DNA of 64,000 nucleotides from an uncultured Bacillota bacterium (GTDB lineage: Bacteria; Sysuimicrobiota; Sysuimicrobiia; Sysuimicrobiales; Segetimicrobiaceae). The DNA lies in contig CAWDRG010000009.1 in assembly GCA_963804645.1 (NCBI GenBank), forward strand, positions 128,001 to 192,000, given 5' to 3'. Below the pieces are notes generated by a model. It was not told where the DNA came from. It did no database searches and was given only the letters and a program-made list of their open reading frames with translations. Positions 1-32,028 of this stretch are shown here, piece by piece. Made by a program: the position numbers and the translations under genes. Position 1 is the stretch's first letter, and each line of letters starts with the position of its first letter.

Positions 1-318
1 GTAGGTCGCGCTATCCGACTGATGCCCCTCCGCCAGCCGGGCGAGACACCACTGATAGAGCGTGAGCAGACGCCCCGCGAGCACGGGGTCCGGGCCGGGA
101 TCGATCGCGCTGATCAACAAGAGCAGCACCTGCGTGACCCTCCGCTCCGCTTTGCGCACGGTGTCGAGATCGGCGGCCGCCACGGCGGCGGCCGCCCGGT
201 CGCACTCGTGCAGCGCGGTATCGTAGGCCAGCAAGAGCACGTCCGTGTTCGACGCGGTGAGAACGTTCGCGGCCTGGTATGCGCGAGCCGCTTCGACCCG
301 GCTGTCAACTGTCGCCAT
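1..318 (-). CDS. fliS: Flagellin chaperone FliS (runs off window edge)
   Basis: Not in ORF track. Manual translation from ATG at 318: MATVDSRVEAARAYQAANVLTAS...LLLAYD...LAGRLLTLYQWCLARL, matching FliS motifs; directly after fliD. Confidence 0.85.
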   Translation of the reverse strand, partial: MATVDSRVEAARAYQAANVLTASNTDVLLLAYDTALHECDRAAAAVAAADLDTVRKAERRVTQVLLLLISAIDPGPDPVLAGRLLTLYQWCLARLAEGHQSDSATY

Positions 319-324
319 CGCCGG

Positions 325-1782
325 CTAGCCTCCCGTCGAGCCCGAGCTCGACCCGCTGTGGCTGTTCGCGGCAGACGCCGCGCTGCTCGAGCCCGAACCG
401 CTCGTCCCGCCGCCGTTCAGCAGGGCCGTCTCGCCCGCGAGCAGGGTCAGCAAGCCCTGGTTCTGGCTCACGGTCTGCTCCATCGCGGTGAACAGCTGCT
501 GCTCGATCAGCGCCTCCTGCTGCAACTGCGCCTGCATCGTGTTGATCGTGGTGGTCAGATTCTGGATCTGGCTCTGGTTGGCGGTGATCTGCTCGGGAAC
601 CGCGCCGGTGTTCGTCTGATCCAGACTCGACAGCGCGGTGCCGGTCGCCTTCGCCACGCCTTGGATCAGCGTCTGCACGCCCTGGGGATTCTGCTGCAGC
701 GCCGACTGCAGGACCGAGTTGTTCACCGCAAGCGTGCCGTTGCTGGTCATGCTGATGCCGATCATGGCGAGGCTGTTGACCGCCGCCGGGGCCCCGGCGA
801 CCGGGCTCATCACGGTCTGGGCGAGCGTGCCGCCGACGAGATTCAACAGCGGGTTGCCGAACAGCGGGCCGCCCGGCGTCTGGGTAGTGGTGTCGTAGGT
901 GTTCTGCGTGTTGATGTCTTTCGCGAGCTGGTTGTAGGCGTCGACGAAGTTCTGGACGCTCGTGGTCTCGCTGCCCGTGTTGGGCGACACGGTCACTGTG
1001 CTCGTGCCCGGCGAGAGGAGCGACAGCGAGAGCCCCGGCAGGAGCGAGGTCACCGTATTCGAGGCGGACGTGACGTTGAGCGCGCCGGCCCCGCTGCCGA
1101 GCGTCAACTGCGCGTCCTGCGCGGCCTGCACGGTATCGAAGGGGCCGAGCGCGGTCCCGCCTCCGGACAGATTGTCGGTCACCGTAAACCCGTTCGTGGT
1201 ACCGGTCTGGTTCCCCGTCAGCAGGAGCTGATACGTCCCGATCCCGGTCTCGGCGACCTGGGCCGTCACGCCGATGCCGGCTCCGTTGATCGCCGCGGCG
1301 ATCCCGTTGAGGCTGTTCTGACCCGAGCCGATCGTGATCGACGTCGGCGAGCCGGTGCCCACCTGAATCGAGAGGGTGCCGGTTCCGAAGTCGAGCGCGG
1401 TCGGATCGCTGACGCTACCGGTGCTGACCGACTCCTGGCCCTGGGCGAGGCTCGAGACGGTCAGCTGATAGCTGCCGGCCGGAGCGCCGGACGACGCCGT
1501 CGCGGTCAGGGCGCCCGAGTTGCTCGACTGCACCCCCATGGCCTGGAACGTGAGGGGATCCTGCAGGGTCGTCACCTGGCTGCCGATCCCCTGCAGGTCG
1601 GTCAGGATCGTCTGCCACGCCGTGTTGGCGTCGGTGTAGGTGCCGACCTGGGACTGATACTCGTTGATCACGGCGGTCTGCGGCGCCTGCTCCGCCTGGA
1701 TGATCGACGTCGAGTTGATCCCGCTCGCGATGCCCGTGAACGAGACCGGAGCGCTGCTGCTGGAGCCGATGCTCAGCGACAT
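325..1782 (-). CDS. fliD: Flagellar filament cap protein FliD
   Basis: N-terminal FTGIASGINSTSII, YQLTVSSLAQ, QAAQDAQL, FVDAYNQL, C-terminal QQLFTAME; start moved to ATG at 1782. Confidence 0.93.
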   Translation of the reverse strand: MSLSIGSSSSAPVSFTGIASGINSTSIIQAEQAPQTAVINEYQSQVGTYTDANTAWQTILTDLQGIGSQVTTLQDPLTFQAMGVQSSNSGALTATASSGAPAGSYQLTVSSLAQGQESVSTGSVSDPTALDFGTGTLSIQVGTGSPTSITIGSGQNSLNGIAAAINGAGIGVTAQVAETGIGTYQLLLTGNQTGTTNGFTVTDNLSGGGTALGPFDTVQAAQDAQLTLGSGAGALNVTSASNTVTSLLPGLSLSLLSPGTSTVTVSPNTGSETTSVQNFVDAYNQLAKDINTQNTYDTTTQTPGGPLFGNPLLNLVGGTLAQTVMSPVAGAPAAVNSLAMIGISMTSNGTLAVNNSVLQSALQQNPQGVQTLIQGVAKATGTALSSLDQTNTGAVPEQITANQSQIQNLTTTINTMQAQLQQEALIEQQLFTAMEQTVSQNQGLLTLLAGETALLNGGGTSGSGSSSAASAANSHSGSSSGSTGG

Positions 1783-1801
1783 GGTATCGAGTCCCTCCCG
1801 A

Positions 1802-1837
1802 GGGGGTGGGCGGGGGCGTGTAACCCCCACCCACCCC
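1802..1837 (-). terminator. GC-rich hairpin between fliC and fliD (partial terminator or mRNA stabiliser)
   Basis: ggggtggg-cggggg ... ccccc-a-cccacccc inverted repeat just after the fliC stop; no U-tract. Confidence 0.5.
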
Positions 1838-1854
1838 GCGGTACCTGCCCGGCC

Positions 1855-3374: not shown

Positions 3375-3400
3375 TCTCGACATCGGCGTATTCTCCTTAT
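3375..3400 (-). promoter_or_regulatory. Candidate sigma28-type promoter for fliC
   Basis: Minus strand reads TAAG-GAGAATAC-GCCGAT-GTCGAGAC; GCCGAT/GTCGA resembles the sigma28 -10 box but spacing is non-canonical. Confidence 0.35.
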
Positions 3401-4590
3401 CCGAGCGACGCGGCAGTCTTCGCGTCTTGGAGCGCGGTCTGCGCGGCCGCAATCGCCGCGTTGTAGGCCGTGGTCGCGGTCTGGAACTCAGCGTAAATCT
3501 CGGCCTGCTGGCTGGCCCCCGAGATCTGGCTCACCTCCGCCTGGATGGCCGAGTCTTGGCTTTGGAGCCGGGTGTTCGTGCTTTGCGCGACCGCCTGCTG
3601 GCTGCCCATGTACGCGTCGATGCTGCTGACGGTGGTCTGGGCCGTTTGAAGCTCGGTCAGGCGGTTGGCCAAGTCCGCGACGTTGTTCGTCTGGAGATCG
3701 GTCAGCGCGCCCTGCAGGGCGTCGAACAGATTGTTGGGTTTGGTCTCGTTGACGATCCCGCCCATCGCATTGACGATCCCGAGCGACTGCAGCACGCCGG
3801 CGCCGCCGTCTACCAGGACGAGCGGATTCGTCGACACACTGCTGATCTGAAGCTCCTGCTGCCCCCCGGCCACCGGCACAGTAGTCGCGGAGACGCCGGC
3901 GTTGGCCCCGTTGATCGCCGTGGCGATCTGCGCCAGCGTCATGCCCGCGGTGACGGTCACGGTCTGACCGTCGACTGTGAAGGTGCCGTTCAGCCCCAGG
4001 ACCCCCGCCGACTGGGGACTGCCGGTCGCCATGTCGGTCTGGGCTAGGAAGATCGCCGTTCCGGGCTCTCCAACGGTGATCTCGGTCCCGGGGCTCAGCG
4101 ACACCGTCGAGGTGTTCTGATTCCCGTTGTAGGTGATGGACGTCGCGGTCTGCGTAAACGGGGTGGCGGATGACGTGCCGTTGAACAGGTAGCGGCCCAC
4201 GCCGCTCTCGGTGTTGGACAGCGAGACCATGTTCCCGAGGATCCCCTGCAGCTGGCTGGCGAGCGCGGTCAGGTCGCTCGCGGTCAGCGTGCCGTTCTGG
4301 GCCTCCACGAGCAGCGTCTGCGCCTGTCCGAGGCCCTGCGTGACGGTCTGCAGCACGGTGTCGGTCTGCGAGAGCGTGGCGGTCTGCACCGCGGCCGTCT
4401 GCTGCCCCTGCTGGTTGAGGCCGATCTGCTCCTGGTCCTGCAGCATCAGCGCCATCGCCGCGGGATTGTCGGACGGCTGCTGGACGAGACTCCCGCTCGC
4501 CGCGTCAACGCTCAATTGCGAGAGGTTGCTCTGATCGTTGTTGAGGATGTTCGAGAGCGCGAGGCTCAGGCCGTAGTTGGTGACTCGCAT
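3397..4590 (-). CDS. flgL: Hook-filament junction protein FlgL
   Basis: MRVTN start, QQPSDNP, GRYLFNGT...TPF, YNGN, C-terminal AYNAA; follows flgK. Confidence 0.93.
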   Translation of the reverse strand: MRVTNYGLSLALSNILNNDQSNLSQLSVDAASGSLVQQPSDNPAAMALMLQDQEQIGLNQQGQQTAAVQTATLSQTDTVLQTVTQGLGQAQTLLVEAQNGTLTASDLTALASQLQGILGNMVSLSNTESGVGRYLFNGTSSATPFTQTATSITYNGNQNTSTVSLSPGTEITVGEPGTAIFLAQTDMATGSPQSAGVLGLNGTFTVDGQTVTVTAGMTLAQIATAINGANAGVSATTVPVAGGQQELQISSVSTNPLVLVDGGAGVLQSLGIVNAMGGIVNETKPNNLFDALQGALTDLQTNNVADLANRLTELQTAQTTVSSIDAYMGSQQAVAQSTNTRLQSQDSAIQAEVSQISGASQQAEIYAEFQTATTAYNAAIAAAQTALQDAKTAASLG

Positions 4591-4600
4591 CGGTCCGCTC

Positions 4601-5953
4601 CTACACGCCCACGGCCGTCAGCAGGCCGTTCAGCATCGCCTGGACCGCCTGCAGGACCGCCGAGGCGGCTTGGGACTGCGATTCATCGAGCAGCAGGGCG
4701 GTCTGCTCGTCGGACGTCGACACGCCGGAGACGGACTGATCGAGCTGCTCGAACGACGTCACCTGGTTGTTGGCGGTCGTCTGGCCCTGGTTGGCGGTCG
4801 CCAGCATCGTGCCGACCTGCACGACGAGCGCGTTGTACTGCTGCGTCAGCGTGCTGCCGCTCATCCCGGCCGCGGTGGCCAGGTTCGCAATGAGCTGCGC
4901 GTTGGCGCCGTCGTTCGGCGAGCCCGACGCGGACGCGGCGATCTCGTTGGTGTTGGCGGCGATCGCGGGATTGATCGCGATGTCGCCGGCTCCCGTGCCC
5001 TGGAAGAACGCGACCCCCGTCACCGGAGGCGTGTCCAGCGTGTACCCGGCCTGGCTCTGCGTGTTGACGGCCTGAATCAATCCGGCCGCCACCGCGTTCA
5101 ACTGCCCCTGCACGGTCGGAATCTGGCTGGTCACCGCTTGGATCTCGGCCCCGAGCTGGCCGCCCGTGAGGTTCACCGCCTGGCCGTTGGCCGCCCACGT
5201 GACGCTCACGCTCGTCGGCGTCGTCGCGGCCTGGAGCGCGTAGACAGTCTGGCCGACCACGAGCGGCTGTCCGTTGACCACGACGGTCGGCTGCCCGGTC
5301 GGGAGCGCCGTTGGCGCCGCGCCCACCAGCGCGGCGAGCTGGCTGACCAGCTGATCGCGCTGATCCTGCAGCGAGTTCACGTTCTGCCCGCCGGCGATGC
5401 CGCTTGTGATCTGGCCGTTCAGGCTCGCCACCTGTTGGGCAAGGGAGTTGACTTGGTCGATCTGCTGGCCGATGGCCGGGACCAAGGACTGCTGGAGGGC
5501 GGTCAGGCCGTCGGCCACGGTGTTGAACTGCGTCGTGAGCTGCGTGGTCGCGCTGACGAGCGCATCGCGGGCCCCCGGGTCCGACGGCGAGTTCGCGACC
5601 TGCTGCCAGGCGTTCCAAAACCCGGTCAACTGGGTACTGAGCCCGTTGCTCGGCTCTCCGAACAGCGCCTGGACCTGGGACAGGATCTGGCTGGACTCGG
5701 ACGCTCCGCTCTGCTGGCCCTGCGCGCTCAGTAACGAGGAGCGGATGGTCGGAGTCACCAACCGCTCGATATTGTTAATCGCGACGCCCGAGTCATTGGG
5801 GGACGTGGTGAGGTCCACCTGCTCTCGCGCGTACAGGGGCGTCGCGGCGTTCGCGATATTCTGGGTGCTGACCGCGGCCTCGGCCGACGCGGCGTCGAGC
5901 GCGGTCCGCGCGGCGCTCAGGGCGCCGGTAAGCGTGAGGGGGAGGGTAGACAT
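4601..5953 (-). CDS. flgK: Hook-associated protein FlgK
   Basis: NIANAATPLYARE, FWNAWQQVANSP, LQDQRDQLVSQLA, SVSGVSTSDEQ. Confidence 0.95.
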   Translation of the reverse strand: MSTLPLTLTGALSAARTALDAASAEAAVSTQNIANAATPLYAREQVDLTTSPNDSGVAINNIERLVTPTIRSSLLSAQGQQSGASESSQILSQVQALFGEPSNGLSTQLTGFWNAWQQVANSPSDPGARDALVSATTQLTTQFNTVADGLTALQQSLVPAIGQQIDQVNSLAQQVASLNGQITSGIAGGQNVNSLQDQRDQLVSQLAALVGAAPTALPTGQPTVVVNGQPLVVGQTVYALQAATTPTSVSVTWAANGQAVNLTGGQLGAEIQAVTSQIPTVQGQLNAVAAGLIQAVNTQSQAGYTLDTPPVTGVAFFQGTGAGDIAINPAIAANTNEIAASASGSPNDGANAQLIANLATAAGMSGSTLTQQYNALVVQVGTMLATANQGQTTANNQVTSFEQLDQSVSGVSTSDEQTALLLDESQSQAASAVLQAVQAMLNGLLTAVGV

Positions 5954-5958
5954 CGGCG

Positions 5959-6294
5959 TCAGACGACCCGGTTGACCAGCAGTCCGCCGGCGGGGCCCGA
6001 ATCACCGAGGTACTGGACCAGCCGCTCGCGCGCCGCCTTCAGCGCTCGCAGCAGGGCGAGATTCGTGCTGATGACGGCGAGGGTCTCTTGGATCACGCTG
6101 CGCGCCTTGGTGTCGGTGACGCCGGCGCTCCGCAGCGAGGTCACCAGCTCGGCGAGCTGCTGGGTCGTGGTCTCGACGCTCTCGCGCTCGAGCCGCACGA
6201 TCCCGGCCTGCTGCTGCTGGGCGAGCATCGCGATTCTGAGGATCATGCCTTCGAGGTCGGCGGGTGCGCTCTCGCGCTCGATGGTCGCGCTCAT
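5959..6294 (-). CDS. flgN: FlgN-like export chaperone
   Basis: 111 aa helical protein between flgM and flgK; N-x-x-LL and C-terminal LLVNRVV pattern; called mostly by position. Confidence 0.6.
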   Translation of the reverse strand: MSATIERESAPADLEGMILRIAMLAQQQQAGIVRLERESVETTTQQLAELVTSLRSAGVTDTKARSVIQETLAVISTNLALLRALKAARERLVQYLGDSGPAGGLLVNRVV

Positions 6295-6599
6295 GACTGC
6301 CCACCCGTGAACGCGGCGATGATCGCCGCGGCGATCGCCTTCGGGTCGGGCTGGTACTGGCCCGACCCGACCGCGGCCGAGAGCTCCGCGATCTTGTCCG
6401 GGGATGCCGCCTGCGGTGCGACACCGCCGTGCCCGTGGATGCCCTGGACATCAACGGTAACCGCGGCCGGCGGGACGGTCTCCCCACCTGCGGTCGGCGG
6501 AACGGCCTGCGCCGCGGCCTGGTCGGCCGGCGTCGTGATCGGGGCTGTCAGTCCAGGAACGCCGCCTGGTTGAAGCGGGCTGATCCGGTCCATAACCAC
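6291..6599 (-). CDS. flgM: Anti-sigma28 factor FlgM
   Basis: C-terminal DKIAELSAAVGSGQYQPDPKAIAAAII; GGAGAGG RBS upstream. Confidence 0.9.
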   Translation of the reverse strand: MVMDRISPLQPGGVPGLTAPITTPADQAAAQAVPPTAGGETVPPAAVTVDVQGIHGHGGVAPQAASPDKIAELSAAVGSGQYQPDPKAIAAAIIAAFTGGQS

Positions 6600-6836: not shown

Positions 6837-7163
6837 TTATGGGGTGTGTGGACCCGAAAGTTTGTTCGGGTTCGAGCCCTGCCCGTGATGCGTGAGCGAG
6901 TCCAGCACCATCTTGGCGAGACCGTTGTCCCCCCGCGATACCGCGTCCGCGAACCCCTGCTCCACGAGCCCTCCATAAATGTCCGCGCCGCCGGACGAGT
7001 CTCCCATCAGCGTGTCCGTCGGAAGGGCGGTATGGAGCACTTCCTGCCACAGCATGGAGGCAAAGTCCTCACTCGCCTTCACGAGCTTCGCGTCCGGTGC
7101 TGCGGGGGCCGAGGCCGCTGCGGGGACGGCGGGCCCCAAGCCGGCCGGCTCGACGGCGGCCAT
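6837..7163 (-). CDS. flgJ: Rod-cap FlgJ, rod-binding domain only (no muramidase domain)
   Basis: KLVKASEDFASML...GGADIYGGLVEQGFADAVS...GLAKMV; follows flgI. Confidence 0.85.
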   Translation of the reverse strand: MAAVEPAGLGPAVPAAASAPAAPDAKLVKASEDFASMLWQEVLHTALPTDTLMGDSSGGADIYGGLVEQGFADAVSRGDNGLAKMVLDSLTHHGQGSNPNKLSGPHTP

Positions 7164-8287
7164 CAGATCACCTCCACGTCGGCCTGCAGGGCGCCGGCCC
7201 GCTGCAGCGACTCGATGATCGTGATGAGGTCGCGAGGCGGCACCCCCAGCGAGTTGAGCGCGGCGACAAGGTCGCTCAGCGTCGCCGCCCCGCCCACCAG
7301 CAGCATGGGTTTATTGCCCTGCTGCACCGAGATCTGCGCGTTCGGCACCGTCTGGGTCGTCCCGTTGCTGAAGGGCCCGGGCTGGCTGACCTGCGTCGTG
7401 TTCGTAATGATGACCTTGATCGAGCCGTTGGCGATCGCCGCGGGCATGAGATGGACGTCCCCCCCGGCCACGATCGTGCCGGTGCGCTCGTTGATGACGA
7501 CCTTGGCCGACACGTGCGGGGCGACGCGCAGTCCCAGCACCTGGCCGATCCACGCGTCGGGGGCCTCGGCCTGTGCCATCGGGGGCGTCACGATGATCGT
7601 CGTCGCGTCCTGGGCGACGGCCTGGCCGAGCCCCATTTGATTGATCGTCTGGGCGATGACGGCCGCGGTCTGGTAATCCGGGTTTCTCAGCGCGAACCGG
7701 ACGTCGCCGTGCTCGTCAACCGCGAGCGCGTCGTCAATCGGCGCGACCACGAGCCCGCCGGACGGCATCATGCCCACGGTCGGATGGTTGACCTGCACGC
7801 TCGACCCGGACTGCTGCGCGTTGAAGCCGCCGATGCTGAGCGCCCCCTGCGCCATCGCGTGCACCTGCCCGTCGAGACCCTGCAGCGGCGTTTGGAGCAG
7901 CACCCCGCCCTGCAGCGACGTGGCGTTGCCCATCGAGCTCACGGTCACCGCGAACCGCTGGCCGTCGGGCGCGAATGCCGGCAGCGACGACGTCACGACG
8001 ACCGCCGCCACGTTGCCGATGTTCATCTGTGACCCGCCCGGCACGTGGATGCCGAACCGCGCGAGCATGTTGGTCACCGTCTGCACGGTGTACGTTGCCT
8101 GGCTGCTGTCGCCCGTCCCGGCCAGACCGACCACGAGCCCGTAGCCCGCCAGGGGATGATCGTGCACGCCCGAGACCGTCGCCAGGCTGCCGACCTCCAC
8201 CCCGCTCTGGACCTGCGCCCATCCCGCGCCGGCGCCGAGCACCGCGACGAGCAGTCCCACTGCGCACCCTACCAGATGACGCCGCAT
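7163..8287 (-). CDS. flgI: Flagellar P-ring protein FlgI
   Basis: Signal peptide; GYGLVVGLAGTGD, NVAAVVVT, ATSLQGGVLLQTPL, AKVVINERTGTIV, AGALQA. Confidence 0.97.
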   Translation of the reverse strand: MRRHLVGCAVGLLVAVLGAGAGWAQVQSGVEVGSLATVSGVHDHPLAGYGLVVGLAGTGDSSQATYTVQTVTNMLARFGIHVPGGSQMNIGNVAAVVVTSSLPAFAPDGQRFAVTVSSMGNATSLQGGVLLQTPLQGLDGQVHAMAQGALSIGGFNAQQSGSSVQVNHPTVGMMPSGGLVVAPIDDALAVDEHGDVRFALRNPDYQTAAVIAQTINQMGLGQAVAQDATTIIVTPPMAQAEAPDAWIGQVLGLRVAPHVSAKVVINERTGTIVAGGDVHLMPAAIANGSIKVIITNTTQVSQPGPFSNGTTQTVPNAQISVQQGNKPMLLVGGAATLSDLVAALNSLGVPPRDLITIIESLQRAGALQADVEVI

Positions 8288-8363
8288 GATCGATCCTCCT
8301 CGTCCCATTTCACGTGCTCCGCCCGAGCGCGCCGCGGCCTGCGCCGAAGCGCGGCGGGATCGC

Positions 8364-8942
8364 TCACAGCGCCGGGATCAGCTTCAAGATGATGCCGACG
8401 CCGAACGCGATCGCCAGCGCATCCCAGATGGTGAATCGCTGGACGGTCGTGAGGTGGCCGGTCATCGTCGCCACCACGTCCGCCAGCCGCGAGCCCTGGA
8501 CCGAATCGTCGGACCCGAGGTCCTGCGCGCGCAGCACCCCGGTAATCGTGATCGTCTGCAGGTTCCCGTCGAGCCTGAACTGGCGCGAGCCCTGCACCGT
8601 CATCAGTCCGCCGGGCGCGATGCCCGTGACGCGCATCGCGAAGTCGCCCGTCAGGGCGTTCTGCCAGGTCGTCGCCGAGCCCTGAGTGGTCTGCAGCCCC
8701 TGCGACACAAAGATGCTGACCAACGGCGAGTTCGTCGTCGTGGTCGACGTCCCGTTCACCGTCGCCTGAACCGACGACGAGGTCAGGTGCACCAGCACGA
8801 TGTCGCCGACCGCGCTGGCGATGGGGTCGACAAACAAACTCCCCGCCGGCGGCGCGTCGGGATTCGCGCCCCAGGCGGGCGCCCCGCCGAGCAGCACGCA
8901 CAGCACGAGTGCGATCCACCCATATCCCCGCAACATCCTCAT
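8364..8942 (-). CDS. flgH: Flagellar L-ring protein FlgH (atypical, no lipobox)
   Basis: SLFVD...VGDIVLV, RVTGIAPGGLMTVQG, ITGVLRAQDL...SRLAD; between flgA and flgI. Confidence 0.85.
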   Translation of the reverse strand: MRMLRGYGWIALVLCVLLGGAPAWGANPDAPPAGSLFVDPIASAVGDIVLVHLTSSSVQATVNGTSTTTTNSPLVSIFVSQGLQTTQGSATTWQNALTGDFAMRVTGIAPGGLMTVQGSRQFRLDGNLQTITITGVLRAQDLGSDDSVQGSRLADVVATMTGHLTTVQRFTIWDALAIAFGVGIILKLIPAL

Positions 8943-9951: not shown

Positions 9952-9953
9952 GG

Positions 9954-23006: not shown

Positions 23007-24567
23007 GTGTGTCCTCCTCTGAGTCTGGCATCGTCGTGTGGAAGCTCTGGGCCGATCGCGGAGGCCGGTGCGACCCGCCCTGCGGGTGCCCGTTTGACGA
23101 ACGGTCGGACGACGCGGGCCGCACGGCGAGATCCGACAACTGCACCTCGTGCGACGCGAGGGCGGAGCGCAGGGCCCCGGCATGGTCCCGAAGCGTCTGC
23201 GCCATCCCCGGCGTCTGCGTCACGACGCGCGCCGACACCGCGTCCGCCCGGTCGGTGAGGGTGACCGTGACCGGTTGGTCACCGCCGGACCGAATCGTCA
23301 CGTGGGAGACCGAGCCGCCGGTCGGTGCGCCGGCGGCCGGTCCATCCGTCACGCGCCCCTGCGCCCCGGCACCTGCGGCCGACGCGGCGCTCCCGGACGA
23401 TGCGGGCCCGGACGCCGCACCGCCCTGCGGGGCCTGGTTCATGCCCTGCCCGATCCCCTGATACCCGCCGCCGCCGGCCTGCGCCTGTCCGCCGTTCCCG
23501 GCGGTCACGCCGCCGAGATCCACCGCCAGCGCCGCATCGGCACCCCGCCGGCCCCCGTCCCGTCCAGAGCCCGCGGAGCCGGCGGCGCTGTCGATCCTCG
23601 CCTGCACCACCGCCGCCACCCCGTCGGCGTTGATCCCGTTCGACCCCGCGGCCTGACCGGCGACCGGCTTGACGGCCTGCCCGCCGCGGACGAATGCGCC
23701 ATCGGGATCCCCGCCGCGACCGGGGGCTATCCCGCGGGGCGGCGACACGTCGACGCGGTCAGATGCGGGCGCGCCGGCCTTCGCCCCGCCCGTGGAGGCG
23801 GGCGCAGCGGAACTGGCCCCGCTCGGTGCGGCGGGCGCCGGGGCCTTGGCCCCGCCCGTGGAGACGGGCGACGATCCCTGGCCCGCGCGGGTCCCGGCGC
23901 TCCCTCCCGTTCCCGAGGCGGCGCTGCCCGCGGCGCCGGCAGCGCCGCGGTGCGTCGGGTCGGTTCCGGTCGACCCGCCGGCCGTGCCGCTCGCAAGCTG
24001 GCGGGCAATGTCGTCACGCGCGCGCATGATGTTCGAGACGTACGATTGGGTCTCGGGATAGGGAGGCACGCCGCCCCACGACGAGACGGCGCCGCTGCCG
24101 GCGTTGTAGGCCGCGAGCCCGAGCGGGACGGAGCCGAACTCGGTGAGCTTCTGCCGCAGGTAGTCCAACCCGCCGGCGAGGTTCTGCGTAGGATCGAGCG
24201 GCTTTGAGACGCCGAGCTCTTGGACCGTACCCGGCATCAACTGCATCAGCCCCAGCGCCCCGGACGGCGACACGGCGCTGGGATTTCCGCCGGATTCCTG
24301 CAGGACGACCGCGAGCGCGAGCGCCGGGTCGACGCCCTCGCGGCGCGCCTGGCTGATGATCAGCTCGCGCTCGCTCTGCGGCAGCTTGCTGAGCTCGGCC
24401 GCGGCGCTCGACCCCGTGCCGCTGGCGCCTCCCGAGACCTGGTTCAGGACGCTCGCGAACGTGGACGTGCCCCCGCCCGAGTCCCCCGAGGCGTCCCCGG
24501 AGATCCCGAAGCGGGATTGGATCGTGCCGATGCGCGCGAGCACGGCGCTGAGGCTGGCCGGCATCAC
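22987..24567 (-). CDS. fliK: Lytic transglycosylase (SLT) fused to a FliK-like hook-length-control C-terminal domain
   Basis: SLT motifs QESGG, GLMQLMP, AAYNAG, ETQSYV; long G/A/S/P linker; VTVTL...VSARVVT...LRDHAGALRSAL...V at the C-terminus; occupies the fliK slot between fliJ and flgD. Confidence 0.8.
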   Translation of the reverse strand: MMPASLSAVLARIGTIQSRFGISGDASGDSGGGTSTFASVLNQVSGGASGTGSSAAAELSKLPQSERELIISQARREGVDPALALAVVLQESGGNPSAVSPSGALGLMQLMPGTVQELGVSKPLDPTQNLAGGLDYLRQKLTEFGSVPLGLAAYNAGSGAVSSWGGVPPYPETQSYVSNIMRARDDIARQLASGTAGGSTGTDPTHRGAAGAAGSAASGTGGSAGTRAGQGSSPVSTGGAKAPAPAAPSGASSAAPASTGGAKAGAPASDRVDVSPPRGIAPGRGGDPDGAFVRGGQAVKPVAGQAAGSNGINADGVAAVVQARIDSAAGSAGSGRDGGRRGADAALAVDLGGVTAGNGGQAQAGGGGYQGIGQGMNQAPQGGAASGPASSGSAASAAGAGAQGRVTDGPAAGAPTGGSVSHVTIRSGGDQPVTVTLTDRADAVSARVVTQTPGMAQTLRDHAGALRSALASHEVQLSDLAVRPASSDRSSNGHPQGGSHRPPRSAQSFHTTMPDSEEDTHEQSGA

Positions 24568-25010
24568 GCGATGGTCCTCCGCGCGCGCTCCGCCACCATC
24601 TCGTCCGTGGCCCGCTCCTGCTCCCGCGCGGCCTCGAGGCGGTGGGTGGCGAGCGCGCGGTCCTTGAGGCGCTCGACGATCTCCGTCTCCTGGCGGCGCG
24701 CCTCGACGACTCCCCGCGCCTCGGCGACGGTCGCCGCGGCCTGGGCCAGCAGGGTGGACTCGCTCTCCAGCGCCGCGTGCATGCCGCGCAGGATGGTGTC
24801 CGCGGTCAGCACCTCGGTCGCCGTCGGACTCTCGAGCAGGCGGTCGCGGACGTCGTCCACCGCGTCCTGGATCTCCGACTCGACCGCCGCCACCCGTTCC
24901 TCGGCCTCGCGCTGCCGCACGACCGACGCGTGCAGCTCGGCCTGGGCCGCGAGCATGCGATGGTGGCGCACTTCGAGCAACCGCTCCAGAGGAAACCGAA
25001 ACTTCTTCAT
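24564..25010 (-). CDS. fliJ: Export protein FliJ
   Basis: MKKFRFPLERLLEVR...ERLKDR...EQERATDE. Confidence 0.92.
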   Translation of the reverse strand: MKKFRFPLERLLEVRHHRMLAAQAELHASVVRQREAEERVAAVESEIQDAVDDVRDRLLESPTATEVLTADTILRGMHAALESESTLLAQAAATVAEARGVVEARRQETEIVERLKDRALATHRLEAAREQERATDEMVAERARRTIA

Positions 25011-26326
25011 CCCTGCAACACCGTCCTCAGCTGGTTCACGATGCCCTCGGCTTGCCCGACCTCGTTCTGATCCTGCCGCAGAAACGTCTCCAGCCCGGCC
25101 GCCACGTGGCGCGCCCGGTCGATCCGCGGATTCGAGCCGGGCGTGTAGGCGCCGATGTTGATCAGATCCTCCGCCTCGCGCAGCGCCGCAAGATGCCCGC
25201 GGACCTCCTGCGCCAATCCGAGATGGTCCGTGCCCACCACGGCCGGCATCACCCGGCTCAGGGACTGGACGATGTCGATCGGAGGAAACCAGCCGCGCTG
25301 GGACAGCGCCCGCGACAGCACGATGTGGCCGTCGAGAATGCTGCGCGTCGCGTCGGCGATCGGATCCATCATGTCGTCCCCGTCGACCAGCACCGTGTAC
25401 AGCGCCGTGATGCACCCGCGCGCGGCCGTCCCGGCCCGCTCCAGCATCCGCGGCAGCTGCGCGAACGCCGAGGGCGTGTACCCGCGGGTCGCCGGGGGCT
25501 CGCCGGCCGCCAGCCCGATCTCCCGCTGGGCCATCATCCACCGGGTCACGGAGTCCATCAGCAGCAGCACGTCCTGTCCCTGGTCCCGAAACCACTCGGC
25601 GATCGCGGTCGCGACGAGCGGCGCCGTCGCGCGTACCATCGGCGGCTCATCGCTCGTGGCCACGACCACCACGCCGCGCGCGAGCCCCTGCGCGGAGATG
25701 ATCTCGAGGAACTCGTTCACCTCGCGGCCGCGCTCGCCGATGAGCGCCGTGACCACCACGTCCGCCTGGGCCGACCGCGCGAGCATCCCGAGGAGCGTGC
25801 TCTTGCCCACGCCGCTCCCGCTCATGATGCCGATGCGCTGGCCCCGCCCCAGCGTGAGGCAGCCGTCGATCGCGCGCACACCGGTCCACAGCGGCGTCGT
25901 GATCCGGGGACGGTCGAGCGGGTTCGGGGGCGATCGCCGGATCGGGGCCCAGTCGCGCCCGACCACCGGCGGCTTCCCGTCCAGCGGGTGTCCGAGCCCG
26001 TTCACCACGCGGCCGAGCACGTCGTCGCCCACCCGGATCGCCAGCGCCCGTCCGAACGGTACGACCTCGGCGCCGGCGCCCATGCCGCTGAGATGGCCGA
26101 GCGCCATCAGTAGGACGCGGCCCTGGCGGAACCCGACGACCTCCGCCTCGATCGCGGGCTCGGTCGGAGACGACTGCACGAGGCACAGATCGCCGACGGC
26201 GACGCCCTCGGGCCCGCGCGCCTCAAGGATCAGCCCCACGATGTCCGTGACCGTGCCGATGACCCGCACGAGCGACGCGTCGGAGACGCGCTGCGGAATC
26301 TCCGCGAGCAGCGGATCAAGATGCAT
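25007..26326 (-). CDS. fliI: Flagellar export ATPase FliI
   Basis: GSGVGKST Walker A, LIGERGREV, DSVTR, GEPPATRGY, LDGHIVLSR. Confidence 0.97.
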   Translation of the reverse strand: MHLDPLLAEIPQRVSDASLVRVIGTVTDIVGLILEARGPEGVAVGDLCLVQSSPTEPAIEAEVVGFRQGRVLLMALGHLSGMGAGAEVVPFGRALAIRVGDDVLGRVVNGLGHPLDGKPPVVGRDWAPIRRSPPNPLDRPRITTPLWTGVRAIDGCLTLGRGQRIGIMSGSGVGKSTLLGMLARSAQADVVVTALIGERGREVNEFLEIISAQGLARGVVVVATSDEPPMVRATAPLVATAIAEWFRDQGQDVLLLMDSVTRWMMAQREIGLAAGEPPATRGYTPSAFAQLPRMLERAGTAARGCITALYTVLVDGDDMMDPIADATRSILDGHIVLSRALSQRGWFPPIDIVQSLSRVMPAVVGTDHLGLAQEVRGHLAALREAEDLINIGAYTPGSNPRIDRARHVAAGLETFLRQDQNEVGQAEGIVNQLRTVLQG

Positions 26327-26999
26327 CGCCGTTCCTCACCAGCGCGGTATGAATCGCCGCGAGCTTGGCGTCGAGACGAGCGTCGACGAGGCCCCGCGAG
26401 GTCTCGACCACGCACCCGCCGCGGACGACGGTGCGGTCCGACCGAACCGTCACGTGCATGCCGGAGTCCCGCTCGAGCGCCTCGCGCACCGGCGCGAGCA
26501 GCGCCGCGTCGTCCGGGTGCAGCCGGAGCACAACCCGGTCGTCCTCCCGGATCGCCTCCAGCGCCGTGCGGACGATGGCCTCGAGGCGCGCCGGATCCGC
26601 GACGATCGCGCCCTGAGCCACGACCCCGGCGATGTGCACGATCGCGTCGACGACGCGGCCGCTGACGCTCGTGAGCAGCTGGTCGCGCGCCTCGGCGATC
26701 TGCGCGACCAGCCCCTGCGCCCGCTCGATCGAGTCGCGCAGCTGCTCGAGGCCCTGGGCCTTCCCCTCGCGCGCGCCCTGCGTGCGCGCCTGCTCGCGCA
26801 GCGCCTCCGCCTCGCGGCGCGCCTCCGCCAGCATCGTCTCCGCCTGCGCGCGCGCGGCGATCAGGATCTGCTCGGGCGTCATCCCGTCGACGATGGCGAC
26901 GTCGGCGATCGGCGGCCGGACGGGCGCGGGCACGACCTGCCCCGTCACGACGGCCCCGCGCACGAGGCGGGACGCGGTTCCGGACAGCACCTTAGACAA
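26316..26999 (-). CDS. fliH: FliH
   Basis: GAREGKAQG repeats, LRLHPDD, GGCVVETSRGLVDA. Confidence 0.9.
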   Translation of the reverse strand: MSKVLSGTASRLVRGAVVTGQVVPAPVRPPIADVAIVDGMTPEQILIAARAQAETMLAEARREAEALREQARTQGAREGKAQGLEQLRDSIERAQGLVAQIAEARDQLLTSVSGRVVDAIVHIAGVVAQGAIVADPARLEAIVRTALEAIREDDRVVLRLHPDDAALLAPVREALERDSGMHVTVRSDRTVVRGGCVVETSRGLVDARLDAKLAAIHTALVRNGDAS

Positions 27000-27996
27000 C
27001 GAGCTCCTCCTCGCCCCGGACCACGGTGATCTCGCCCGACTCCTCGAGCGCGCGGACGACCGCCACGATCGATCGCCGCGCGTTCTCCACGTCGCGGACG
27101 CGCGTCGCGCCCATCAGCTCCATCTCTTCCTTCACGACCTCCTGGGCGCGCTGGCTCAGGTTCCGCAGCATCTTCTCGCGCACGTCGTCCTGCGCGCCCT
27201 TCAGCGCCGTGGCCACGACCTTGTGCTCCACGTCCCGCAGCACACGCTGCAGCGTCGCGTCGCTCAGCATCAGCAGGTCGTCGAAGACGAACAGCAGCGC
27301 CTTGACCTCGTCCACCAGCGCGGGGTCCCGCTTCTCCAGCTCACCGAGGATGGCGCGCTCGGAGTCGCGGTCGACGCGGGTGATGATGTCGACCAGGGCC
27401 TTCACCCCCCCGGTCGGCTCCGCCGTCAGGGGCATCACGACGACGATCTTCTTCTCGAGCGAGTGCTCGACGCGGCGCAGCAACTCGGGGCTCACCGGCT
27501 GCGCCCGCGCGATCCGGTGGGCGAGATCCGCCTTGACCCCCGCCGACATGGCCTGCAGCGCGCGTCCGGCGACGTCGCTCGGGAGGTAGGACAGCGCCAG
27601 CGCCGCGGCCTGCGGATGCTCGTCCTGCAGCACCGCGGCGATCTGCTCGGGCCGCGCCCGCCGCATCCGGTCGAACATCGCGCTCTGCTTCGGCATCAGC
27701 TGCGCCAGCATGTCCTCGGCGCGCTGCGGCCCAACGGCGCCCTGCAGCAGCTCCCGGTAGTACGACATCCCGCCGCTCCCGCCGAACACCGTGGACCGCC
27801 CGAACTCCTTCAGCACCGCCTCGCGCTCCCCGTTGGGCGCGTTGCCGACGGCCATCATCTCTGCGAGGAGCGGCGCGACATCGTCCTCGTTGAGGTACTT
27901 GAGCACCTGCGCCGCCACGTCGCTCGGCAGCATCAACATGAAGATCGCCGCCTTCCGCCTGCCGGTCAGTCCGTTCGCCGTTGCCGCCGCGCTCAT
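26992..27996 (-). CDS. fliG: C-ring protein FliG
   Basis: GRRKAAI, EHPQAAALALSYL, GGVK, LFVFDDL, NLSQRA, LEESGEI. Confidence 0.96.
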   Translation of the reverse strand: MSAAATANGLTGRRKAAIFMLMLPSDVAAQVLKYLNEDDVAPLLAEMMAVGNAPNGEREAVLKEFGRSTVFGGSGGMSYYRELLQGAVGPQRAEDMLAQLMPKQSAMFDRMRRARPEQIAAVLQDEHPQAAALALSYLPSDVAGRALQAMSAGVKADLAHRIARAQPVSPELLRRVEHSLEKKIVVVMPLTAEPTGGVKALVDIITRVDRDSERAILGELEKRDPALVDEVKALLFVFDDLLMLSDATLQRVLRDVEHKVVATALKGAQDDVREKMLRNLSQRAQEVVKEEMELMGATRVRDVENARRSIVAVVRALEESGEITVVRGEEELVV

Positions 27997-29582
27997 CAGT
28001 TCACACCCTCCTGGCCGCCGTTGCCCCACCATGCGCGCACGACATCGGCGCTAACCGCGGGGTTCCGCCGCGCCCACTCGGCGACTTGCTGCGCGAGCGC
28101 GCTGTCGGTCTCCGCGGGCGCCGGGGCGTTCTCGGGCATCACCGGGATCGACACCACGGGTGCCGGGGCCGGCGCGGGCGCGCGCCGGCGGCCGCGCATG
28201 AGGAAGAACGCGAGCGCGCCGATCACGGCGAGGGCGACGCCCCCGCCCGCCGCGAGCATCACCATCGACGGCCCGCTCTTGGCGCCCGCCGCGCCCGTGG
28301 CCGCCGTGAATCCCGCCGCCGCGGTCGACGGGGCGAAGGGAACGCGCGTCACCATGACGCTGTCACCCCGCTTTGGGTTGAGATAGCTGCTCGAGATCGC
28401 CCGCTGGATGTTGTTCGCGGTGGTCAGGCCCACCGAGTTGTCGACGAACACGGTGATCGCGAGCCGATCGATCTGGCCGCCGGGATCGCTGGTCTCGACG
28501 CGCCGCTCACCCTCGTGGTAGTTGGTCGTCTGCAGCGTGCGCTGATACGCGCTCGCCGATCCGGCGGAGGCGGCACCCGCGGCCGGCCCGTAGGTCGGCG
28601 GCTTGGCCGGCGCGCCCGCGCCGGCGGGGCCCGTCCGGCCGGCGGTCGCGGTGCCCGTGGCGCCGACGTTCGGCGCCACGCCGCCCGGTCCGCCGGAGTA
28701 GGTCTCCTGGGTCGACTGCTGGCTGACCGGCACCCCTTGGGTGGGCAGGTCCTCGACCGTCCGCACCTGCGCCGCGCGGATGTCGGCCCGGACCTCGATC
28801 ACGGCCTTGCCGGGGCCGGCGACCGCGTTGACGAGCTCCGCCACCTGGTCGTGGACGCGCTGCTCCGTCGCCTGCTCGACGGTATCCATCTCGGATCCGG
28901 ACACAAACCCGTCGGCCTGCCCCGACCCGGCTGCGAGCAGCCGTCCGTGGTCGTCGGCGACGGAGACGCGATCCGGCGTCAGTCCCTCCACCGCTGAGGC
29001 CACGAGATGCGTGATCGCCCGGACTTCAGAGCTGGACAGCTCCCCGCCCGGCTGCAGCGATACCATCACCGCCGCGTGCGCGGGCCGGTCGTTGCTCGAG
29101 TAGGTGCTGGTCTCCGGCAGCGCCAGCATCACCTGCGCGGAGCGCACCTCGCCGAGGGCTTCCACCGCCTGGGTGAGCTGGCCCTCGAGCGCGCGCATGT
29201 AGTCCACGTGCTCCACGGTGTCGCTCGCGCCGAGCGGCAGGTGGTCGAACAGGCCGAAGCCGACGATCCCGGTCGGCAGCCCTTCGCCGGCCAGCTGGAT
29301 CCGGGTCGCGGCCAGCCGGTCCGGCGCCACGAGAATGCTCGTGCCATCGTCGCTCGGCCGGAACGGGATGTGGTGTGCCTCGAGCGCGGTGATCACCTGG
29401 CTCGCGCCGTCGGGCGTGAGGTTGCTGTAGAGCACGCTCCACTGCGACTGCCGTCCGACCACCGCGAGCGCGGCAAGCACGACGGCCACGGCGACGGTGA
29501 TCGCCAGGCCAAAGCGCCGCTGCGTGGGGGGCACGTTCGCCCACGTCGCGCTCACCGACTGCATCATCTGGTCGACGGACAC
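27996..29582 (-). CDS. fliF: MS-ring protein FliF
   Basis: LYSNL, GFGLFD, RALEGQL, HLVASAVEGL, RGDSVMV, second TM, C-terminal VVRAW. Confidence 0.95.
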   Translation of the reverse strand: MSVDQMMQSVSATWANVPPTQRRFGLAITVAVAVVLAALAVVGRQSQWSVLYSNLTPDGASQVITALEAHHIPFRPSDDGTSILVAPDRLAATRIQLAGEGLPTGIVGFGLFDHLPLGASDTVEHVDYMRALEGQLTQAVEALGEVRSAQVMLALPETSTYSSNDRPAHAAVMVSLQPGGELSSSEVRAITHLVASAVEGLTPDRVSVADDHGRLLAAGSGQADGFVSGSEMDTVEQATEQRVHDQVAELVNAVAGPGKAVIEVRADIRAAQVRTVEDLPTQGVPVSQQSTQETYSGGPGGVAPNVGATGTATAGRTGPAGAGAPAKPPTYGPAAGAASAGSASAYQRTLQTTNYHEGERRVETSDPGGQIDRLAITVFVDNSVGLTTANNIQRAISSSYLNPKRGDSVMVTRVPFAPSTAAAGFTAATGAAGAKSGPSMVMLAAGGGVALAVIGALAFFLMRGRRRAPAPAPAPVVSIPVMPENAPAPAETDSALAQQVAEWARRNPAVSADVVRAWWGNGGQEGVN

Positions 29583-29585: not shown

Positions 29586-29882
29586 CTAGACGGCCTCCGA
29601 CATCAGCGACTGATAGGCGCTCACGACCCGGTCGCGGACCTGGGCGAGCAGGCCCACGGCCAGCGTCGCCTCCTGCAGCGTCAGCATGGTCTTGGCGATG
29701 TCGCCGGTGCCGTTGGCGAGCTGGGTCACCTGGGACTCCGCCTGCGTCTCGAGTCCCTCGGCCTGCCCGACGACGCCGCCGAGCATCCCGGCAAAGCCCG
29801 ACTCCGCCGGCCCGCTCGGGCGGGCGGTCTGCAGGTCGGTGGTCGCAACGGGCGCCAGCGTGGGCCCGGAGATCGGCATCAT
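29586..29882 (-). CDS. fliE: FliE
   Basis: FAGML...MLTLQEA...QVRDRVVSAYQSLM. Confidence 0.92.
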   Translation of the reverse strand: MMPISGPTLAPVATTDLQTARPSGPAESGFAGMLGGVVGQAEGLETQAESQVTQLANGTGDIAKTMLTLQEATLAVGLLAQVRDRVVSAYQSLMSEAV

Positions 29883-30340
29883 GCTTTCCCGATCCCGATC
29901 GCGGCGGTCGCCATGCTCTTGGCGTCCTCGATCGCGGTGACGTTCGCGCGATAGTGCTGCGCGGCGCCCATCAGGTCCACCATCTCGCTGATCGAGGACA
30001 CGTTCGGCTGCTGCACGTAGCCCTGCGAGTCCGCGAGGGGATTGCCCGGGTCGTACGTCTTGCCGCCTTGGGTCGTGTCCGTCCTCACGCCCACGACCTC
30101 GACGCCGGCGCCGGAGGAATCGCCCTGCAGCAGCGGTTCGTCGACCGCCCCCGTAGGGGCCGCGGCCCACACGTCCGACGAGCGCTCCGCGACGATCGCC
30201 TCCTGCCGCTGAAACGGGCCGCCGCCCGGGGAGTTGGTCGTGTCGACGTTCGCGAGGTTGTTGGCGATCAGGGACATGCGAAACCGCTCGGCCGTCATGC
30301 CCGACGCGCTCACCGACATGCTCTGAAACAGCGGATCCAT
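29879..30340 (-). CDS. flgC: Rod protein FlgC
   Basis: SASGMTAERFRMSLIANNLAN, YDPGNPLAD, PNV...EMVDL. Confidence 0.96.
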   Translation of the reverse strand: MDPLFQSMSVSASGMTAERFRMSLIANNLANVDTTNSPGGGPFQRQEAIVAERSSDVWAAAPTGAVDEPLLQGDSSGAGVEVVGVRTDTTQGGKTYDPGNPLADSQGYVQQPNVSSISEMVDLMGAAQHYRANVTAIEDAKSMATAAIGIGKA

Positions 30341-30355
30341 GGCGTGCCTCCTCCG

Positions 30356-30757
30356 CTATCCCATCAGTCCGGTTTTGGCGAGCGTGATCTCGCCGCCCGC
30401 CGCGGTGGAAATGGCCTGGTACGACAGCGCGTTCGCCGCGATCTCCGCCATGGTGGCGTCGGGGTCGACCCCGCTGCCTTCGGATCCCGCCAGCACCGGC
30501 GCGGTGACGATCGTGTCGACGTCAGAGTCCGACGTGGCCGCCGTGGAAATCGGCGCGGCGCTCGCATCGGGCGGGCGGAGGGACAGAGTCTGGTCGAGCG
30601 TGTCGGCGAAAGACGTCGTATCGACGTCGCGCGCGACGAACCCCGGCGAGTGCGCGTTCGCCAGGTCGTTGGCGAGGACTTGCTGCCGGAACGCGTGCAG
30701 TGACAGCGCCCGTGCCACTTCGGTTAAGCCTGGGATCATCATCGCACCGTCAACCAT
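30356..30757 (-). CDS. flgB: Rod protein FlgB
   Basis: RQQVLANDLANAHSPGFVARDV, GSGVDPDATM...NALSYQA; start uncertain. Confidence 0.9.
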   Translation of the reverse strand: MVDGAMMIPGLTEVARALSLHAFRQQVLANDLANAHSPGFVARDVDTTSFADTLDQTLSLRPPDASAAPISTAATSDSDVDTIVTAPVLAGSEGSGVDPDATMAEIAANALSYQAISTAAGGEITLAKTGLMG

Positions 30758-30813
30758 AGCGAGCCCGCCCGTGCGAGACAATCTGCAAACGCCTATTCAC
30801 TTGCGTACTGCCC

Positions 30814-32028
30814 TTAGTCCGCGGCGGGACCCTCGACGCGTGCGGTGCGCTGCGCGGACGCCAGTGCCGGCGCGCTTCCAATGTGCTGCACGTCCGGGAC
30901 GTCCGGCACAGCCTGCAGCGGGGCCGCGGGTGCGGTGCCGTTGCGGGTGGGCGGGGTGGAACCGGGCAGCATCGCGACGAGCGCGAACACCGCGCGCGCC
31001 TGCTCGAGGACGCTGCTGGCGTCGGTGATTTGTCCGGAGGACGTGTGCAGGTCCGCGAGGACCACGAGGCTCTGGGCCTCGGTCAGCGCGTCGCCGGCCT
31101 CGTGCGCCACCGCGCGGGCGTATCCGATCTGGGCGAACGCTTCGTCGATCCGCCCCTGCCGGCGCGCCGCCTGCCCCAGGTGCAGGCGCGTGACCGCCTC
31201 CTGCCGCTTGGTCGCCAAGGCCTCGCGCAGCATCAGCGCGTGCTGATTGGCATTGACCGCGCCTGCCAGGTTCCCGTGGCTCTCGGCGGTGATCGCCTGC
31301 GCTTCCCACAGTTCCGCCGCCTGCTGGGGCGCGAGCGAGGCCATCGCCTCCTCGAGCTGCGCCTCGAGGCCGTCGCTGCCGTCGCCCTGCGCCAGCGCGA
31401 CGCAGATCAGCTCGGCCACGCAGCGCGCGCGCAGGCCCGGCCAGGAGTCACCCATGCTGGCCAGCGTCGTGATCAGCGTCTGCTGGGCCCGGGGATGATC
31501 GCCCTTCGCGTGCAGCGCCACGGCCAGCGCGTAGCGACTCTGGGCCACCGCCTGCGCGTGCCCGAACCGCGCCGCCTCCGTCTGCGCCGCGGTCAGCTCG
31601 GTCTCATACTGCGGGGTCCACCGGCGCTGCACGCGCGCCGACGCGAACTCAAGACGGGCGAGCGCGGTGCGGGACGCATCCGAGGCGGTCACCGCGAGGG
31701 CCTCGGCGGTCTCAAACAGGCGCTGCGCGGTCTCCAGGTCGCCCGCGGCGCGCCGGATCCTCGCGCGCAGCAGCACGCAGTCGATCTCGGCCTCGTCCGG
31801 GCCGCCCTGCTCCAGGAAAAATCGGATGGGCTTCCCGACGCGGCGCGCGATGTGCGACAGCACCCGACGGGTGGGGTTCACGCGGCCGGACTCGATCCGG
31901 TGGATGGTGACCGGATCGACCTCGCCGCCCGCGAGCTGTGCTTGCGTCAGCCCAGCCTCCAAACGCGACTGTCGAACCTTGTCCGCGAGCGAGGCTGTTG
32001 AGGAACTCAACCGGATCGTCCCCCCCAC
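30814..32028 (-). CDS. XRE-family HTH plus TPR-repeat transcriptional regulator
   Basis: KVRQSRLEAGLTQAQLA...IHRIESGRVNP HTH followed by Ala/Leu-rich helical repeats; GTG start. Confidence 0.85.
   Translation of the reverse strand: MGGTIRLSSSTASLADKVRQSRLEAGLTQAQLAGGEVDPVTIHRIESGRVNPTRRVLSHIARRVGKPIRFFLEQGGPDEAEIDCVLLRARIRRAAGDLETAQRLFETAEALAVTASDASRTALARLEFASARVQRRWTPQYETELTAAQTEAARFGHAQAVAQSRYALAVALHAKGDHPRAQQTLITTLASMGDSWPGLRARCVAELICVALAQGDGSDGLEAQLEEAMASLAPQQAAELWEAQAITAESHGNLAGAVNANQHALMLREALATKRQEAVTRLHLGQAARRQGRIDEAFAQIGYARAVAHEAGDALTEAQSLVVLADLHTSSGQITDASSVLEQARAVFALVAMLPGSTPPTRNGTAPAAPLQAVPDVPDVQHIGSAPALASAQRTARVEGPAAD

Follow-up and report, generated by a model that had tools for sequence, protein, structure and literature searches.

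Flagellar gene clusters that combine a monoderm-type gene order with genes for the L and P rings of an outer membrane have been described in Negativicutes and Halanaerobiales. In the passage of PMC5007114 that treats them, they are called chimeric monoderm/diderm and consist of a Bacillus-type operon together with a flgF-flgG-flgA-flgH-flgI-flgJ cluster; L/P-ring genes are treated as ancestral in the pertinent part of PMC13277936. Here we examine a cluster of the same architecture in a 64,000-nt stretch of contig CAWDRG010000009.1 (the window), which belongs to an uncultured bacterium (genome G000) of another phylum. The passage on diderm Firmicutes describes no loss of chemotaxis genes or of the FliM docking peptide, whereas both are missing here. 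We propose, at a probability of about 0.65, that this is a native flagellum of its phylum reduced to an unsteered, single-direction motor that is regulated by whether it is built.

Flagella are costly, and why a cell retains one that it does not steer remains an ecological puzzle. Chemotaxis-free flagella known from nature occur either as secondary systems or in lineages that are deep and isolated, Aquifex among them. Like the window's flagellum, that of Aquifex aeolicus is a sole flagellar system in a genome without chemoreceptor homologues; according to the excerpt from PMC4525482, most cells swim linearly and the authors propose no switching. Aquifex has one polar flagellum and reportedly no FliM (disputed in a passage of PMC12199754), whereas in the window FliM is present minus its tip and FlhF is gone. 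The window lineage also has close chemotactic relatives, which permits a direct before/after comparison. Unidirectional motors drive the lateral flagella of Shewanella putrefaciens and Vibrio alginolyticus, and those of Shewanella ignore the chemotaxis system (passages in PMC12016497 and PMC8203827). These are secondary systems in cells steered by a polar flagellum, whereas the single FlhA of G000 marks its flagellum as the only one. The FliM2 of Shewanella is said to be without the docking peptide. In reduced actinobacterial flagella, as excerpted from PMC10746217, FlhF and FlaG are likewise lost, but FlgFG, FlgM and the L/P rings are lost too and F1 or F5 chemosensory systems are mostly kept. 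Some of the FliM proteins of these flagella that we compared have no peptide, and their FliM is only 25-28% identical to that of the window. By analogy, the window's flagellum would work like the Aquifex flagellum and the Shewanella lateral flagella while belonging to neither. A literature search that left out subscription papers and the supplement of the Sysuimicrobiota paper (PMC11604079) found no description of this system, and outside subscription papers it found no general survey of chemotaxis-free flagella.

Switch proteins and chemotaxis genes

The cluster lies within a 1.4-Mb contig of G000 (5.3 Mb, 22 contigs, 96.77% complete). We compared it across a phylum sample of 94 genomes, comprising one order and seven families, in which G000 and its genus fall in family f1. 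FlgI was found in 14 of the 94, of which three belong to the G000 genus and the other 11 to families f3, f5 and f6. Within f1, the cluster is carried by three of the seven genomes of the genus, namely G000, G068 (97% complete, about 260 contigs) and G070 (65% complete), and by 0/16 in the other genera.

The strongest point is that the CheY-docking peptide of FliM is gone and that FliY has been cut down to FliN. fliM starts 2 nt past the fliL stop, and in alignment the N-terminal LSQxEIDxL docking peptide for CheY-P and FlhG is missing. The FliM profile of the window's clade begins near residue 27 of full-length Salmonella FliM (profile position 6 is residue 32 of 8umd_C), and the middle domain folds as FliM, with a root-mean-square deviation of 1.9 Å to 4fq0. 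All 11 FliM genes outside f1 encode the peptide, as against 0/3 genomes of the G000 genus, and of the 14 FliM proteins of the clade, 2 are truncated and the 12 whose N-terminus can be read all lack it. A loose motif scan of the other G000 cluster genes gave no match, so that the peptide has not been relocated within the cluster; both strict matches in the genome fall within other reading frames, away from the cluster. FliN has 128 residues in the window versus 335-360 for the relatives' FliY with its CheC domains, and fliM abuts fliN, leaving no space for fliY. When aligned with its chemotactic relatives, FliG still has the EHPQ, GG-linker and LFVF motifs. Excerpts from two studies report that the docking peptide binds CheY-P and FlhG (PMC5677366; bioRxiv 2022.04.21.489128), that mutation of the FliM motif in Caulobacter stops reversals with swimming speed kept (PMC5677366), and that FliM E9K in Vibrio leads to straight swimming (bioRxiv 2022.04.21.489128). 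The losses of the FliM peptide and of FliY match the lack of identifiable CheY and FlhG partners and are one event on the tree.

Family searches of the whole G000 genome gave no match for CheW, methyl-accepting chemotaxis proteins (MCPs), the CheA dimer domain, FliW, CsrA, sigma-54 or PilZ, and the same seven families were not found in G068 or G070. Controls were positive in known genomes and in the relatives G091 and G092, where all seven are present. An FlhF profile retrieved only two G000 proteins, below cut-off, which read as signal-recognition-particle-type GTPases. Searches of G000 by tblastn with the relatives' CheA, CheW, CheR, FlaG and RpoN gave no match, those with CheB and CheY returned receiver domains only, and FlhG returned four MinD/ParA-type matches (27-35%), all outside the cluster. 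A preliminary description of this DNA had recorded no che genes, no flhF/flhG after flhA and no fliW/csrA before fliC. At the two named positions this holds, since flhA and fliA overlap by 1 nt and flgL and fliC are 108 nt apart. The missing genes do not lie outside the window either: genome-wide, the absence stands for the che genes, flhF and fliW/csrA. G000 is without both the CheA/CheW/MCP/CheY set and the LSQxEIDxL peptide on FliM (or FliY/FliN) of a canonical chemotactic flagellum, and CheW occurs in 11/11 FlgI-bearing genomes outside f1 versus 0/3 within it.

A chemosensory gene cluster was observed in the non-flagellated f1 genome G077 (L109:5777-15033, G077:C34), where CheW-CheR-CheW-MCP-CheA-CheB-kinase genes are flanked by integrase-like genes. 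Its CheW was taken to be non-flagellar on account of a CheA-receiver hybrid, a CHASE3 receptor and the integrase-like neighbors; this is likely an acquired, non-motility system.

The f3, f5 and f6 clusters share with the window the runs flgBC-fliEFGHIJ-SLT-fliK-flgDE-flbD-motAB-fliLM...flhBA and flgFG-flgAHIJ-flgMNKL-fliCDS as well as a lipobox-free FlgH, and they are closest to it in FlhA and FliG trees; in G090, G091 and G092 the core order and the flgFG-flgAHIJ-flgMNKL block are as in the window. They keep cheAWYBR, MCPs, FliY, FlhF (FlhG in f6), PilZ, FliW, CsrA, FlaG and sigma-54 with its activator, whereas the window's cluster has none of these. The G091 cluster itself holds MCPs, CheA, CheW, CheY, CheB, CheR, FliY and FlhF and further a PilZ protein, FliW, CsrA, FlaG and sigma-54 with its activator, and that of G092 adds FlhG. 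FliM carries the docking peptide in these families and SLT and FliK are separate genes, whereas in the window the peptide is missing and the two are fused. The window cluster differs from its relatives by subtraction. Because the chemotactic sister clusters share its gene order, each loss can be itemized and put to the test through swaps of FliM, FliN/FliY and FliG.

The preliminary description had taken the monoderm-type order with L/P rings as a distinctive feature. We rejected this as a novelty because the combination is published for diderm Firmicutes and the same order with flgAHIJ is found in the phylum's other, chemotactic flagellated families; it is native to the phylum and not new. 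What sets the window apart is the loss, and the changes in the switch proteins FliM and FliY had escaped that description.

Host phylum and history of the cluster

The host phylum is likely Sysuimicrobiota, because the family count and the distribution of CheW-bearing flagella match the description of that phylum. The description in PMC11604079 fits one order, seven families and the distribution of flagella, and its main text gives flagella only for Sysuimicrobiaceae and Thermofontiviventaceae; among the 94 genomes, CheW-bearing flagella occur mostly in one three-genus family and one one-genus family. Families f3, f5 and f6 are likely these two, and the FlhA of G092 is 95% identical to a protein cluster labelled Armatimonadota. 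Family f1 may correspond to Segetimicrobiaceae, a guess based on habitat and genome size. The earlier suggestion of a Sysuimicrobiota-like lineage is supported by this reasoning, and motility genes are extended to a family of the phylum for which that main text reported none. The proposed diderm host is also borne out: G000 encodes Omp85 and LpxC, along with Skp-like neighbors, and the presence of Omp85 and LpxC establishes, by accepted marker logic, a lipopolysaccharide-type outer membrane.

An FlhA search retrieved six relatives at 58-78% identity before a drop to 47%. In FlhA trees, the clade joins f3/f5/f6 with a support of 100 (FastTree, 132 rows) and an SH-aLRT of 99 with a mixture model (a selection of 47 of these rows), and in the FliG tree it groups with f5 (support 89). 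On the G000 branch, divergence is 1.2-3.7x greater for all 21 flagellar proteins tested but not for RecA. We considered and dropped the idea that the switch proteins evolve fastest, since FliM (3.2x), FliN (2.9x) and FliG (2.8x, from 173 columns only) fall within the range of all 21 proteins. Locus scans yielded two loci in a genome collection and nine in metagenomes, all 62% or more identical, so that loci of the deep clade members (58-62% FlhA) were not seen.

In the RecA comparison, the flagellated G068 is nested among three non-flagellated members of its genus. The metagenome locus L077:740-1663 holds motB, a damaged fliL and, joined to each other, pieces of fliM and fliG; GGDEF and receiver genes of no related function come next. 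It may have arisen by deletion or as a chimera of the assembly. The nesting of G068 and this apparent remnant fit repeated loss of the cluster. An empty-site comparison placed the flanking genes on separate contigs in non-flagellated relatives.

Predicted motor behavior and competing explanations

Because no chemotaxis genes were found and FliM is without the steering-signal docking site kept by chemotactic relatives, this bacterium likely swims without steering; the non-switching motor is predicted from gene losses only. An ancestor of the lineage would have lost the chemotaxis block and the number and placement proteins, after which the FliM peptide and the FliY CheC domains, partnerless once the che genes and FlhG were gone, would have been deleted. 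The motor would then run in one fixed direction; which one, the sequence does not reveal. Control of motility would lie mainly in making or not making flagella, through the XRE-TPR gene at the cluster head, a divergent sigma factor and FlgM. Dispersal may occur by straight runs and passive reorientation in wet peat or soil, and repeated loss has likely left the cluster in only 3/7 genomes of the genus.

The cluster genes are under purifying selection. Ratios of nonsynonymous to synonymous substitution (dN/dS) relative to G070 are 0.06-0.28 in 16/16 genes, motA and motB included (motA 0.14, motB 0.22, fliL 0.23). Relative to G068, 13 genes have ratios of 0.16-0.32, and motA, fliL and the XRE gene reach 0.46-0.64; motA stands at 0.46, and the XRE-TPR gene at 0.10 versus G070 and 0.55 versus G068. 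Contigs from peat RNA cover most of fliC at 97.5-100% identity in the listed pieces, in 4/4 runs from one study, and window positions 1-12000 have 53 RNA-library contigs at 95% or more, compared with 7 for a control of 17.9 kb without flagellar genes. That RNA coverage of the early genes has gaps carries no meaning. These contigs are consistent with transcription; they are not proof of it, because the runs were selected for holding this stretch.

Several observations weigh against a native flagellum that has become unsteered. The RNA runs, selected in this way, come from a single study, and their contigs show neither level nor strand. The 11-versus-3 contrast in the docking peptide is one evolutionary event rather than a set of independent samples, and the peptide is also missing in 3/6 non-clade FliM matches (one labelled Micrococcales) and in the FliM of Thermomicrobium roseum. 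Loss of the peptide by itself is no proof of a locked motor. The sole CheW match of G035 appears to sit in a non-flagellar cluster. In the FlhA tree the stem branch is long (0.92), the supports are FastTree and SH-aLRT values, the outgroups are the top 120 matches only and several rows have biased composition; RecA, moreover, sets f1 apart from f5/f6, with non-flagellated families in between. Finally, G000 contains possible motor modulators, namely two stand-alone receiver proteins, seven GGDEF matches, a second fliL and a second fliG.

These modulators would be central if the motor were regulated outside the Che pathway, with stop/go, brake or load control exerted via the second FliG or FliL, a stand-alone receiver or cyclic di-GMP, an arrangement that we consider unlikely. 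The second fliG (G000:C17:227010-227996; L067:1498-2484, minus strand) is intact and lies outside the cluster; it has 94% DNA identity to the cluster copy, its own ribosome site, a position downstream of a two-component pair and a dN/dS of 0.24, and its type recurs as a seven-row subclade (support 97) from several assemblies. The second fliL lies beside the cluster in both G000 and G070, GGDEF genes are plentiful, and rotor brakes other than CheY are known, such as FtgA on FliN (an excerpt of PMC11522434). However, no PilZ protein was found, the FliG copy shows no change that could be linked to switching, searches of G068 and G070 did not find a second fliG, and the G068 region examined has only one fliL. 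Both single-domain receivers are encoded at a distance from the cluster, and they match the relatives' CheY no better than ordinary response regulators do. Somewhat less probable again is acquisition of the cluster as a ready-made chemotaxis-free module from an unsampled lineage, which is compatible with the same motor behavior. The patchy presence in the genus and its absence from the family's other genera, the different genes that flank the cluster in G068 versus G000/G070, the greater divergence of the flagellar proteins but not of RecA, and the want of an organism name for the deepest clade members would all suit transfer. They are set against FlhA and FliG trees that place the cluster with the phylum's own systems, a gene order and a GT2-TPR gene common to f6, and a G+C content of 70.6% versus 70.2% next door. 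No tRNA was found in four flanking loci, and the best FliM in plasmids (27%) and viral contigs (25%) is no close relative; transfer from Actinobacteria, plasmids or phages was rejected for want of a close match. The fliM-fliG remnant in L077, unless an assembly chimera, also suggests ongoing loss in relatives.

A filament used mainly for adhesion, surface sensing or secretion, with swimming minor or absent, is improbable. The loss of steering genes, the glycosyltransferase beside fliC-fliD-fliS and the higher motA ratio versus G068 would accord with such a role, but in the comparison with G070 the genes motA, motB, fliL, fliG, fliM and fliN prove intact and under constraint, MotB retains its Asp, the same glycosyltransferase occurs in a chemotactic relative, and a filament gene is a good predictor of motility (as stated in a passage of PMC12199754). 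That che genes exist and were missed in assembly or binning is hardly credible: fragmentation (22 contigs in G000, about 260 in G068) and the incompleteness of G070 leave some room for it, but the cluster sits inside a 1.4-Mb contig, at the site where relatives carry che, three genomes agree, and the matching parts of FliM and FliN are lost too. The unsteered, single-direction motor also admits a bolder extension, which we regard as doubtful. A peat and soil clade would have built a switchless dispersal motor by deleting every known rotor input (CheY dock, FliY phosphatase, PilZ brake, FlhFG), rebuilding the cascade on the XRE-TPR protein and a sigma factor of new specificity and fusing SLT to the hook ruler; one branch would also have gained a second FliG, separately controlled, that sets the motor state by subunit exchange.

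Gene content and other remodeled parts

The 37 flagellar genes run head to tail and gap-free from flgB to fliS, with intergenic distances of -20 to 237 nt (Table 1), and the preliminary description had named them correctly as one co-oriented run in this order. Gene identities rest on family-profile matches for every cluster gene except flgN. This gene is where it was said to be, but it has no FlgN family match and no significant similarity to a relative's FlgN, and it is therefore named by position only. SLT and FliK are likewise both present, although in a single open reading frame, and the gene at the right-hand end of the span described as flagellar (30814-32028) is regulator-like rather than a flagellar part. 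flgB has only NCBIfam matches below cut-off, and flgJ a weak rod-binding match (E 0.0045). flhA (717 residues, start 14332) overlaps the flhB stop.

All parts of a rotary flagellum are encoded, including export gate, ATPase, MS and C rings, rod, hook, junction, filament and cap. The hook, filament and stator genes separate it from non-flagellar type III secretion systems, and the Bacillus-type operon with flgFG-flgAHIJ in an outer-membrane host is that of a diderm-Terrabacteria (chimeric) flagellum. A lateral Fla2/Laf system was ruled out by the single FlhA, which leaves no primary polar flagellum, and by LafA models, which scored 146 and 79 against the window flagellin, under cut-offs of 365 and 440.

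Table 1. Features of the flagellar cluster (window positions, except in the last row)
Feature	Position	Strand	Basis
XRE helix-turn-helix + TPR gene, cluster head	30814..32028	-	Pfam HTH_3/TPR_12
flgB, flgC, fliE (proximal rod)	29586..30781	-	family matches
fliF, fliG (26992-27999), fliH, fliI, fliJ	24564..29582	-	family matches
SLT lytic transglycosylase + FliK fusion, 526 aa	22987..24567	-	Pfam SLT 69-166, Flg_hook 432-488
flgD, flgE, flbD	20736..23006	-	family matches
motA, motB, fliL (stator)	18715..20731	-	family matches; MotB transmembrane Asp and plug present
fliM without N-terminal LSQxEIDxL docking peptide	17789..18712	-	alignment, profile, structure comparison
fliN, 128 aa	17403..17789	-	family match; comparison with relatives' FliY
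fliO (68 aa), fliP, fliQ, fliR, flhB, flhA	12179..17400	-	family matches
Divergent sigma factor at the FliA position	11514..12179	-	regions 2 and 4 conserved; region 3 without a match
flgF, flgG, flgA, flgH, flgI, short flgJ (distal rod, P/L rings)	6837..11517	-	family matches
flgM, flgN (by position), flgK, flgL	3397..6599	-	family matches
fliC flagellin, 477 aa	1855..3288	-	family match
fliD and the beginning of fliS (whose end is 84 nt beyond the window's left edge)	1..1782	-	family matches
GT2-TPR glycosyltransferase and second fliL, left end of cluster	G000:C9:125419-127960 (L124:17419-19960)	-	

The earlier statement that several parts are remodeled at once holds beyond the switch. SLT-FliK is one open reading frame in G000 and G068 and carries one frameshift in G070, and G091 and G092 have two overlapping genes. 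The sigma factor at the FliA position is 26% identical to the FliA of G091; because its recognition helices differ from those of the relatives' FliA and an acidic low-complexity linker stands where region 3 is expected, it may read a non-standard promoter. Upstream of fliC, a GCCGATG-like -10 element is seen in G000 and G068, with one change in G070, and no TAAA at the usual spacing, in three sequences only; the same number, too few, underlies a GAGAC-like word upstream of flgM and fliC. The XRE-TPR gene heads the cluster in 3/3 genomes (G000, G070 and G068), where relatives have sigma-54 genes, and its product is a candidate regulator replacing their sigma-54 system. FliO has no hydrophobic segment and FliP no signal-peptide-like start, the N-terminal hydrophobic parts being missing in both. 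FlgH has no lipobox Cys in the window, a feature that we rejected as a novelty in view of 109 of the 150 best representatives without a loose lipobox match and a C-terminal helix that is general; only 7 of these 150 have an equally hydrophobic tail, and ESM Atlas leads to ordinary FlgH clusters. The GT2-TPR glycosyltransferase beside fliC-fliD-fliS likely has a role in flagellin glycosylation.

MotB (window 19140-19895) scores best against a MotD model and then against PomB/MotS-type models. It carries Leu at the transmembrane position taken to mark sodium-type stators. In G068 (L045:19800 - L046:9200, G068:C249), the flgM-flgN-flgK-flgL-fliC-fliD-fliS-GT2 block has the opposite orientation to the other cluster genes. 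In G070 (L048-L051, G070:C18), fliD, flgK, flgE, SLT-fliK, fliI and a flanking acyl-CoA synthetase gene are each split by frameshifts, which look like sequencing error rather than decay. An Rfam search gave no matches. Outside the cluster, window positions 49286-58046 hold a 4.41-kb tandem duplication with a sulfatase gene, whose pieces are 97-99% identical and which is either a recent duplication or an assembly artefact.

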